Shown here: positions 27,805 to 31,382 of the stretch, in pieces
Layout: each line of letters opens with the position of its first letter
How positions within the stretch are numbered: position 1 is the first letter of the stretch
Assembly (NCBI RefSeq): GCF_046105845.1
Contig: NZ_CP151004.1
Length of the DNA: 64,000 nucleotides
Reading direction: 5' to 3' (one strand)
Source of the DNA: Escherichia coli
GTDB taxonomy: Bacteria; Pseudomonadota; Gammaproteobacteria; Enterobacterales; Enterobacteriaceae
Notes under the pieces: generated by a model
The model's database searches: none
The model's input: the letters and a program-made list of their open reading frames with translations, nothing else
What the model was told of the DNA's origin: nothing
Position numbers and translations under genes: made by a program

Positions 27805-30144
27805 ATGACAGATTCAATAAATGCCAATGTTGTGGTAAGCATGCCTTCGCAACTCTTCACTATGGCTCGTTCTTTTAAAGCCGTAGCCAATGGCAAAATT
27901 TATATCGGTAAAATTGACACGGACCCGGTAAATCCTGAAAACCAGATTCAGGTTTATGTGGAGAACGAAGACGGTTCTCACGTTCCTGTTTCGCAACCAA
28001 TAATCATTAACGCTGCTGGATATCCGGTATATAACGGACAGATTGCCAAATTCGTTACCGTGCAAGGCCATTCTATGGCTGTTTATGATGCGTATGGTTC
28101 GCAGCAGTTCTATTTTCCGAATGTGTTGAAGTACGACCCTGATCAGTTTTCCTTGTGGGCAAAGGGAAATTTCGAAATATCAGAATACAGTCGAATAATT
28201 GATGGCGATTTTGCGTCTGGATATACTATTACCAATAGAAAACAGGTCCTTAAATACACTGATGGACTTTATTACCAATGGCTTGGTTCCCTTCCGAAAA
28301 CTGTAGCGCCAACAGAAAATCCAAATCTTAATAGTCAATGGTTATGCGTCATGGATGGTTCTAATTTCAATGATGCGATCATGTGCAGTCGCTACATTCA
28401 TAGCGGAGTTGACTGCGCATCGGTAATAAATAAATTACAAATATTATCAGAATATAAAAGGGTTCCTCTAGATTTTAGAGGTATAGATGTGATCTCGTTT
28501 AGTGGTAGTGTGCAAATTGGCGACTGGTTTCATTGGATTGGTGCAGGGAAGTCAAGTACTACTATCAGACCAATCTCACTAACAAAGCAAGACGTTGAGA
28601 ATAATGGCTTTGGCTATTACTCTTGGTTCATCCGTAAGAACCCTGACAAGGATCTATATTTTGCGATGCTGCAGGATATTTGTTTTGATGGACAATACCA
28701 AGACGGTTACGAAATAAATAACATTGCGCCGCAGAAGATTATTCGCGCATTCTGCTGGCATTTCAATAACGGTGCCATTGGTCGCAATATTACTGCTTTA
28801 AGATGTCATTTCAAAAACTGCCCACATGAAGCATGGGAAGGATACACAACTAATGGTGGAATGATTGATGGTATTAATTATTTGTATTGTTCATCAGAGG
28901 GAACAGACCCAATGCTTACCGCTGTTGGATTCAATGCATTTAAGTGTATGAATGGCTCTATTGATTCACCTGGCGAATACGGTACATATACCATTAAAAA
29001 CATCTTCAGTTTCGGCAACACTGCTTTCGGCCATCGTACATTGAATGACTTTAAGAGAGGTTGCGAAAATTGGGTTATCGATGCATGCCAAACATTCGAC
29101 ATGAACGATTGCCATCACTCTACGGATGGTTCACGCCGTGGTGTATTCCTTGCTGGCAATATCGGAATTCAAACAGGAAAATCAAAAGCAACTAAAAATT
29201 TTCTTGAAATTCAAGGAGAGAATATTGATGTTCTTGGTGGAAAGTATGTTGCTGCAGCAACCAGTGTGGCTGGCTTGGCTGGTATATTCGTGACTAATTA
29301 CTCGTATCCTTCTGAGTCTACAGACTTCCAATCACAGCACATTCGAATTAAAAATGTCTATGTCGAAAGGGTAAACAATAATGCGGTACGCATTGTCAAT
29401 GGGTATGACATCAACGTTGAAGATATCACGGCTGTTAGCTGTAACGGTGTTGGTGTATCATTCGAATTTGTGCCTGGACTAATTAGCGGAATTGACAATC
29501 AAGAGATAAAACCAAGATTTAACTCTGTAGGTAAGATCATAACTAGTTCGTGTTCAGGTGAAGTGCTTGTAGACAATAACCAAGACGTATTTATCACTGC
29601 CAATAGCCAGAATACAGGAGGTGGTTTTCGTGTTGGAAGAAGTGATGCTGTCCATAGTACTAACCCTCTACCGATGCGTTCCATAGCTGGTCATATTCTA
29701 GCTAATCAGGATAGATTTTTTCAGTCTGTTATATCTATTGCGCCAGAGAAAACAGATGCAACTACAAAGCCTGTAGGTACGCCTTATGCATTCACTCTTA
29801 ACGATAAGAATACCGCATCAGTACAGAGTTTATTAGTGGCAACACTTCGAGTAGCTCAACGAAGCGCTGTCTATGTAAGACTATGGACGTTATCAGAAAC
29901 ATCAATATCATCGGCGGTCATTTTTCGCGAATTGGATTCTACAGGTAATTCGTTATCTAATACTGCAATAAAATTATTATCTGATAATTCGTGGCTTGAG
30001 CGTCAGGCAATATATCATGTTAAAAGATCAGAATGTGTAGCTGTAGAGGTTTTTCTTGCTCCTGCTTGTGATGAACGCATGGATATTTCCTTGACAGGAA
30101 CAACTAGTTTTGCTGATGTTAGAGTAAGTAATTATCCAATCTGA
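27805..30144 (+). CDS. Tailspike protein (P22-type N-terminal head-binding domain plus beta-helix receptor-binding domain)
   Basis: 779 aa; first ~115 aa (...[38 protein letters not shown]...) recalled as conserved P22-family tailspike N-terminus; remainder divergent. Confidence 0.9.
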
Positions 30145-30145
30145 A

Positions 30146-30170
30146 AAGGCGAGTCCACGCCCGCCTTTTT
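30146..30170 (+). terminator. Rho-independent terminator after tailspike
   Basis: GC-rich hairpin followed by TTTTTATT. Confidence 0.55.
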
Positions 30171-30203
30171 ATTACCAACAACCATCTCATTTGTGAGGTG
30201 GTT

Positions 30204-31382
30204 TTACTGAAGTTTTCTTCTTGTGTATGTTAGTACATTAAATTTTTTAAACTTACTACACGGTGTCTCAATATATCTAAAACATAGCAATGATATAAGC
30301 GTGATAAACCCAGAGAGGATTATAATAATAGCTGAAAATACAAGGCTGTTAATTTGATTAACATAGCTAACCGGAAGTATTATTTTAAATGTTATAAAAA
30401 GTATAATGCCATGTAGAAGATACATGCTATATGTAGCTTCTCCAAAAACTTGACAGGTTTTTATCTTAAGAACTCCAAAAATATCGCATCCATTTGATAT
30501 CAGAATAAATGCAATACCACAGAGTGATATTGTTATTGGATTGTAAGGATTTGGAATTAAAAAACAAGTTACACATAAGATAACGATGACGAATAAGCTT
30601 GATAATATTTTATTGAAAGGCAAGCCGTTAGGCAGTTTGTGATTTATTTTTGCTGCCAGATAACCAAAAACAAATGATAAAATATGTATTTTTAATGATG
30701 GATAGAAAATAAAAGCAAATACACTCGCAATACTAAGAATTGTGTAAGTATTAAATTTGTCTCTTCTCATTATAAAAGCCATAAAAGGAAGAGATAAATA
30801 AAAAAACCATTCATAAACAAGTGACCACGGAACTCCGGCCATGATAAGCGACGTCTTGTGAAGACCGTTAACATCAGGCATTCCAAGGAAAGAAAAAGGA
30901 ACCCATCTCGCCATAGATATTATGAGATTGGCAATTCCTGTGTTAATTTTCCAATCAGAAACATAGAACACAATTATGAATAGTAGAGATAACGAAACCA
31001 GATACATAGGTGTTAGTCTCATTATTCTTGACCAAAATAAATCTTCCCAATTTACTGATTTATTCGAAATCAATTTCCCGAAGAACAAGAAGCCTGTAAT
31101 CATAAAAAAGAAAATAACAGCTATTTTTCCAATATTAGTATAAAATAACGAATCAGGATCAGACCAAACCCCAGTATGTATGTATTGCCACCAGAAACTG
31201 GAATGATGAAGGAAAACCATTAAAGCAAGAAATCCTCTAAGCCCATCAATTGATTCACTCCTTCCTTTGATAGGTGATAAGTGTGTTTCTGTGACAAATA
31301 TTCTTGCAACCGAAAGTGAAGTAATCACCGATAAAGAAGCAATTAAAAAGCCATTAAATCCGTCAAACATAGAAATCTCCAT
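30204..31382 (-). CDS. oac: O-antigen acetyltransferase, acyltransferase-3 family (Sf6 Oac-like)
   Basis: About 390 aa multi-pass membrane protein with DGLRGFLALMVFLHH motif; very AT-rich; between tailspike and integrase as in Sf6. Confidence 0.8.
   Translation of the reverse strand: MEISMFDGFNGFLIASLSVITSLSVARIFVTETHLSPIKGRSESIDGLRGFLALMVFLHHSSFWWQYIHTGVWSDPDSLFYTNIGKIAVIFFFMITGFLFFGKLISNKSVNWEDLFWSRIMRLTPMYLVSLSLLFIIVFYVSDWKINTGIANLIISMARWVPFSFLGMPDVNGLHKTSLIMAGVPWSLVYEWFFYLSLPFMAFIMRRDKFNTYTILSIASVFAFIFYPSLKIHILSFVFGYLAAKINHKLPNGLPFNKILSSLFVIVILCVTCFLIPNPYNPITISLCGIAFILISNGCDIFGVLKIKTCQVFGEATYSMYLLHGIILFITFKIILPVSYVNQINSLVFSAIIIILSGFITLISLLCFRYIETPCSKFKKFNVLTYTRRKLQ

Follow-up and report, generated by a model that had tools for sequence, protein, structure and literature searches.

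A receptor-binding domain and an OacB-like acyltransferase exchanged as one cassette in a P22-like prophage of Escherichia coli

Do the tailspike gene and the convergent acyltransferase gene found at the right-hand end of an Escherichia coli prophage belong together, so that the phage would alter, once it is a lysogen, the same surface polysaccharide that its virion recognises? We addressed this question in a 64,000-nucleotide stretch of E. coli contig NZ_CP151004.1 (the window, whose positions are used throughout), the first 33 kb of which are a P22-like, HK620/Sf6-like prophage (Lederbergvirus) integrated at argW. The tailspike gene (27805-30144, + strand, 779 residues) is followed on the - strand by the acyltransferase gene (30204-31370, 388 residues, or 30204-31382, 392 residues), and a preliminary description had read the two, at 27805-31382, as a serotype-conversion pairing. 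The pair is present, with the convergent gene in a slot known from other phages, and the idea of a pairing is strengthened both by the exchange of the two genes as a block and by the modification genes of their relatives; the unit that is truly exchanged, however, is a 3.6-kb cassette at 28138-31706, which comprises the receptor-binding domain, a terminator, the acyltransferase gene and a spacer.

The tailspike gene is a chimera, because its nucleotides 1-345 are about 89-96% identical to HK620, Sf6, CUS-3 and ~1,150 E. coli records, whereas for the remaining 1,995 nucleotides megablast gave no match, either among phage records or in the 5,426 complete genomes of E. coli searched. The conserved part encodes the head-binding domain (codons 1-115, 27805-28149, + strand), which matched Pfam Head_binding (PF09008) over residues 4-114 (E = 4e-65), and the chimeric joint lies directly after YDPDQF, the end of that domain (residue 115, nucleotide 28149). 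In a PDB search Sf6 gp14 matched residues 1-116 only (E = 2e-64), and the solved Sf6 and P22 tailspike chains cover residues 1-126 only. The early reading of this protein, a P22-family head-binding N-terminus joined to a divergent domain of ~660 residues, was therefore borne out, the second part being a receptor-binding module of 664 residues (codons 116-779, 28150-30144, + strand).

The boundaries of the cassette were located by comparison with Sf6 and with four related prophages. Similarity to Sf6 ends at 28148 (89% identity before this point) and resumes at 31707 (96% after it), which is the int stop codon, and these boundaries coincide with those between which Sf6 carries its own receptor-binding domain and oac. 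The prophages L008, L009, L022 and L023 share the receptor-binding domain and the acyltransferase of the window, and the cassette is 99.5-100% identical in all four (gene by gene, 99.6-100% for the receptor-binding domain and 99.7-100% for the acyltransferase), whereas the adjacent head-binding region is 89.6-93.3% identical in the same prophages and the L009 integrase 96.7%. The window and L008 differ at 38 positions in 27797-28137 and at 1 position in 28138-32599. Differences from L009 are dense up to 28137, number 17 in 28138-31700 and are dense again from 31723, so that the flanking DNA is 3-7% divergent on both sides and the spacer (31371-31698) falls inside the near-identical block. The same left breakpoint was found in L022, where dense mismatches stop at 28137, and in L023. 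Because a near-identical block stands in diverged backgrounds, we concluded that the domain, terminator, acyltransferase and spacer spread recently as one unit. The exchange occurs by recombination within the conserved sequences on either side, int on the right and, as the left recombination arm, the head-binding domain. Moreover, the cassette is compositionally foreign, with a GC content of 39.5% in the receptor-binding domain, 31.7% in the acyltransferase gene and 33.5% in the spacer, against 47.6% in the rest of the prophage and 50.3% in the chromosome. None of the 5,426 complete RefSeq genomes of E. coli that were searched contains the cassette; its carriers, about 70 assemblies, are drafts of E. 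coli or E. albertii.

The acyltransferase gene of this cassette is intact. Its product matched Pfam Acyl_transf_3 (PF01757) at 316 of 326 profile positions (residues 44-361 of 392, E = 2e-28), and the Pfam scan gave no second domain and no fused SGNH domain, which makes it an acyltransferase-3 (AT3)-only protein; it also matched the PHROG 3333 O-acetyltransferase (E = 1e-52). Translation probably starts at ATG 31370 (388 residues), because a GGAG lies 6 nucleotides upstream, the ribosome-binding region is conserved in the homologues of 65-67% identity, and NCBI annotates 388 residues. The closest characterised relative is OacB of phage Sf101 (40% identity over 95% of the length). Sf6 Oac (OacA) aligned at 30% identity over 107 residues only (E = 1e-5), and orthology with it was rejected, the two proteins belonging to the same Pfam family but to different subfamilies. 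Of the earlier wording, an AT-rich acyltransferase-3 gene of the Sf6 oac type, the AT3 family, the base composition and the opposite strand stand, but the type has to be changed from Oac-like to OacB-like.

Previous studies placed the hallmarks of AT3 proteins in an R/K-X10-H motif of the first conserved transmembrane helix and an RXXR motif of the first cytoplasmic loop (PMC9558356), and seven OacB residues proved critical by mutagenesis, R47, H58, W71, F98, R116, R119, and S146 (PMC8952252). Both motifs are present in the window protein, as R45...H56 (388-residue numbering) and R115-I-M-R118, and both are invariant in 44 homologues. Six of the seven critical OacB residues are kept (R47, H58, W71, F98, R116, and R119), and S146 aligns with a glycine in a variable loop. 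The structural model is all-helical, with a predicted local distance difference test score (pLDDT) of 91.6; a Foldseek search of it against the PDB gave no hit at E < 1e-3, and the entry 8jl4_A (probability 0.77, template modelling score 0.36) is labelled just 'membrane proteins'. The gene might nevertheless be a decaying, non-functional remnant, as damaged alleles occur in other strains: the L009 copy (8058-9233) has two 1-nucleotide indels 155 nucleotides apart, between which the internal stretch is out of frame, and truncated proteins of 200-247 residues (P0162, P0163, and P0167) are found in other E. coli. The open reading frame of the window, however, is full length compared with homologues of 373-390 residues, contains all the invariant AT3 residues, keeps its high pLDDT throughout, and is the allele found identical in L022 and L023, which makes a remnant very improbable; the check for a pseudogene, which had been proposed beforehand, thus found a full-length gene with both motifs and most of the critical residues. 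The alleles are 0-1 substitutions apart, too few for a ratio of nonsynonymous to synonymous substitution rates. From its family and motifs we predict an O-acetyltransferase that acts on a surface polysaccharide.

A 50%-identical AT3 homologue was also seen in another prophage (L027:1822-4592), directly after a gene of the Sulfatase family and beside phage holin and endolysin genes. The Sulfatase family includes phosphoethanolamine transferases, and the arrangement may be a double lipopolysaccharide-modification module.

The receptor-binding module consists of a small Tail_spike_N-like domain (Pfam Tail_spike_N, residues 131-173), a right-handed beta-helix and a C-terminal beta-sandwich; it thus has the right-handed beta-helix by which the C-terminal receptor-binding domain of a P22-like tailspike is recognised, and no Pfam model spans this helix. 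Protein-level relatives of 41-59% identity were found in the lytic T7-like Enterobacter phage Kayfunavirus vB_VIPECLMC06, the T1-like coliphages TR3 and ZL19, sipho-type Enterobacter prophages, epsilon15-like E. coli prophages, and among Xenorhabdus and Vibrio proteins. An exhaustive HMMER search of 1.84 billion proteins returned only 65 representative clusters, and therefore the family is small. There was no characterised member among those found, and the literature that mentions phages with related domains contained nothing on their specificity. A profile search of the PDB gave a match limited to the N-terminal ~130 positions, and the CBA120 TSP2-4, HK620, Det7 and Klebsiella depolymerase tailspikes and the AlgE4 A-module share 8-14% sequence identity with the module.

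A candidate active site was found in a 28-sequence alignment (A1, in whose numbering, D320, H322 and so on, 115 is added to obtain full-length tailspike positions). The motif N-D-C-H-H-S-T-D-G (codons 434-442, 29104-29130, + strand) contains D435, C436, H437, S439, D441, and G442, which are invariant, and N434 and H438, which are at least 90% conserved; E421 and E468 are likewise invariant or nearly so. The motif together with these two glutamates supplies the candidate catalytic residues, a role suggested by conservation. The catalytic residues of AlgE-type mannuronan C5-epimerases are Tyr149, Asp152, His154, and Asp178 (PMC7385640). The D-x-H spacing of D435 and H437 recalls D152/H154 of AlgE while the AlgE tyrosine is unmatched, a likeness at the level of sequence. 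We presume that the module binds, and probably cleaves, a polysaccharide, whether as a hydrolase or as a lyase.

The position of the two genes is that of the tailspike-int conversion slot of argW Lederbergviruses known from Sf6, Sf101, CUS-3, and HK620, and the window shows this slot in full. Sf6 has the same backbone type, an integrase 98% identical to that of the window (376/383 residues by BLASTP) and a head-binding domain with 89% nucleotide identity, and it repeats the order and orientation of tailspike, annotated terminator, convergent AT3-only oac (OacA), AT-rich promoter region, int, and argW, the oac promoter being annotated at the position equivalent to the window spacer. It differs in its receptor-binding domain, which is an endorhamnosidase unrelated in sequence, and in Oac, which lacks the extra N-terminal hydrophobic helix that the window acyltransferase has in common with OacB. 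Phage Sf101 shares the left joint and carries oacB convergent after its tailspike, and OacB is of about the same length as the window protein; however, the Sf101 tailspike is of the Sf6 type and its integration site is sbcB (PMC4159516), and the acceptor specificity of OacB (RhaIII 3/4-O in S. flexneri) is not transferable at 40% identity. Despite the sbcB site, the 3'-terminal part of an argW-type integrase gene survives in Sf101 directly beside oacB, as a remnant of 59 bp with 88% identity (L016:4288-4346), and marks a right-hand end of the cassette that is common to Sf101, the window and Sf6. The E. coli K1 prophage CUS-3, likewise a Lederbergvirus integrated at argW, joins the conserved head-binding domain to an exchanged receptor-binding domain; its endosialidase tailspike is followed by neuO, which O-acetylates the tailspike's own target polysaccharide. 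The CUS-3 target differs in being the K1 capsule, and NeuO, instead of being a membrane protein of the AT3 family, is a soluble acetyltransferase of the hexapeptide-repeat type with phase-variable repeats. HK620 has a convergent 'O-antigen modification protein' in the same slot. The architecture is thus already known from these four phages and the accepted picture is unchanged; new here are the receptor-binding-domain family and the OacB-like acyltransferase within the known arrangement.

We then considered which genes accompany the receptor-binding-domain family elsewhere. Among temperate carriers of related domains, a convergent AT3 gene or gtrABC lies directly downstream in six of seven distinct contexts. 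The closest acyltransferase lineages outside the allele cluster of the cassette, P0002 (67% identity) and P0003 (65%), are both encoded convergent to, and directly after, tailspikes whose receptor-binding domain (residue 134 to the C-terminus) is 54-55% identical to that of the window. Both lineages occur in prophages of the sipho type, which encode a tape measure protein and NlpC/P60; one is in Enterobacter hormaechei and the other in a metagenomic enterobacterium, next to thrS. The temperate carriers L014 and L017/18 have a different, Sf6-Oac-like AT3 gene in the same position, and L010-13 and L019/20 have gtrA-gtrB-gtrC there; gtrABC conversion cassettes are documented as mobile between phage types (PMC2629481). 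In the two lytic carriers examined (T7-like and T1-like) no modification gene follows the tailspike, and a holin or hypothetical gene stands in its place.

These arrangements bear on whether the acyltransferase has anything to do with the receptor of its own phage. Its benefit could be an unrelated one, such as immune evasion through a change of serotype or the blocking of other phages, with the tailspike indifferent to the modification and the adjacency reflecting only a permissive insertion slot, and it is true that the tailspike-int slot holds unrelated cargo across phages (AT3, neuO, a Wzy-like protein, and gtrABC), that partners are shuffled within the receptor-binding-domain family, and that an acyltransferase 45% identical to that of the window adjoins an unrelated tailspike. 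On the other hand, the receptor-binding domain and the acyltransferase travel as a 99.5-100% identical block with sharp boundaries, and both of the closest outside acyltransferase lineages adjoin the same domain family in a different morphotype and host genus, so we regard an unrelated benefit as unlikely.

The tailspike beside the 45%-identical acyltransferase (L004/L005) was examined as a possible relative and rejected, being unrelated to the receptor-binding family of the window. At the chromosomal site where it occurs, beside a MASE1-EAL gene and ppx in E. coli, L004/L005 and L017/L018 are epsilon15-like prophages with the same lysis cassette; the former carry the unrelated tailspike with an OacB-like AT3, and in the latter an Sf6-Oac-like AT3 accompanies a tailspike that belongs, at 54% identity, to the receptor-binding family of the window. 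Such alternative tailspike-AT3 pairs at one site suggest pairwise swapping in a second phage type.

Taken together, we consider it likely that the tailspike targets a surface polysaccharide which the acyltransferase O-acetylates in the lysogen, with a change of serotype and hindered adsorption of phages that carry the same module. The polysaccharide that the virion would recognise, and probably cut, is most likely the O-antigen. In the lysogen, the AT3 protein, if expressed from the prophage, would move acetyl groups from cytoplasmic acetyl-CoA across the inner membrane onto a sugar of that polysaccharide. The serotype would then change, and the cell would serve less well as a receptor, both for this phage and for relatives with the same receptor-binding module, a form of self-exclusion. 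Precedent for hindered adsorption is given by phage BTP1, whose rhamnosidase tailspike is blocked by OafB-mediated O-acetylation (reviewed in PMC9558356), and oacB of Sf101 is listed under receptor inactivation (PMC11436027).

Two variants of this proposal concern the polymer and the chemistry. The target may be a capsule or another acidic exopolysaccharide, as with the endosialidase and neuO of CUS-3, in which case a lyase-type tailspike would act on a uronic-acid polymer that the acyltransferase acetylates; we judge such a target improbable. Speculative, and rather unlikely, is the view that the domain and its cognate receptor-masking enzyme form one evolutionary unit that crosses morphotypes and genera, namely P22-like Escherichia podoviruses and Enterobacter sipho-type prophages, with AlgE-like D-x-H chemistry; by this is meant a lyase or epimerase type of reaction on N-D-C-H-H-S-T-D-G, instead of the carboxylate-pair hydrolysis of known P22-like tailspikes.

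Several observations weigh against acetylation of the tailspike's own O-antigen target as the function of the pair. In the P22-like relative L021, the 1.6 kb that can be seen past the tailspike contain no modification gene. Strict co-divergence of tailspike and acyltransferase was rejected, the pairwise identities not being parallel: L001 and L002 have tailspikes 93% identical and acyltransferases 72% identical, and L014 and L017 have tailspikes 47% identical and acyltransferases 84.5% identical. Partners are therefore also reshuffled in this slot. Since some carriers have damaged alleles, the acyltransferase is dispensable and has been lost repeatedly while the tailspike stays intact. At 40% identity to any characterised enzyme its acceptor is unreadable from the sequence, and AT3-only enzymes act on enterobacterial common antigen, capsules, exopolysaccharides, and small molecules too (PMC9558356). 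The O-antigen (rfb) gene cluster of the host lies outside the 64-kb window. Finally, a promoter search upstream of the acyltransferase gene gave weak consensus matches that were no commoner than in shuffled sequence.

With these points considered, the cassette offers a clean natural example of a receptor-recognition module and a receptor-altering enzyme, as we read them, that are passed on and swapped together between defined recombination boundaries. This makes it easier to predict, from the sequence of a prophage, its host range and the serotype conversion it brings about. A tailspike family of Escherichia, Enterobacter, Xenorhabdus, and Vibrio phages and an OacB-like acetyltransferase, both uncharacterised, also come into view, and their specificities could be determined jointly.

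Between the convergent genes, which are 59 bp apart, RNA folding predicted a bidirectional intrinsic-terminator hairpin (30142-30171, both strands; -13.2 kcal/mol, z -4.5), followed by UUUUU on the + strand and by UUUUC on the - strand. On the other side of the acyltransferase gene, the AT-rich leader or spacer (31371-31698, - strand) is presumed to hold its promoter; counted from the longer open reading frame (31382), the AT-rich stretch before the integrase is 316 bp. An alignment of the upstream regions of the 65-67% identical acyltransferase homologues contained a conserved ribosome-binding site and no shared promoter. In the same upstream regions (L001:9801-10000 and L002:3803-4002) we observed SOS-box-like palindromes, CTGTAT-N4-ATACAG (CTGT-N8-ACAG), which probably belong to the neighbouring divergent S24-peptidase (UmuD/LexA-like) gene of L001; L002 has the same palindromes without an annotated S24-peptidase gene. 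Genes for a Cap4 nuclease and for AAA_15/AAA_21 proteins lie near this site in L001 and may represent defence cargo carried at the end of the prophage.

The surrounding prophage is conserved. For the backbone, 60% of the query 1-25000 aligned with HK620, at 95.7% identity. The Mnt, Arc, and Ant region (26254-27704), with mnt (26254-26505, - strand), arc (26533-26757, + strand), and ant (26760-27704, + strand), precedes the tailspike in the P22-like virion gene cluster, and the tailspike gene thus lies between this region and int, as expected of a P22-like (Lederbergvirus) tailspike. The right-hand flank is formed by the tyrosine integrase gene (31699-32856, - strand; Pfam Phage_integrase and Arm-DNA-bind_3) and by the prophage-chromosome junction (attR side) at the tRNA-Arg(CCU) gene argW (33018-33092, - strand, found with ARAGORN). 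The chromosomal flank is 99% identical to E. coli yfdC-mlaA-argW-fadL, with yfdC directly past argW.

Two further genes sit between the gene-16-like ejection protein and mnt. One (25785-26237, + strand) encodes a lipoprotein of 150 residues with the lipobox LLSGC and a weak PEGA match, which is 96.7% identical to gene 15 of Salmonella phage epsilon34, and the other, on the opposite strand (25370-25699, - strand), encodes a protein of 109 residues with a hydrophobic stretch at its N-terminus; both are candidate prophage-expressed 'moron' genes. In addition, ant is separated from the start of the tailspike gene by a strong terminator-like hairpin (27722-27741; 8 bp with 5 GC pairs, then a T-run), which is comparable to 'tANT', a terminator in the HK620 annotation.

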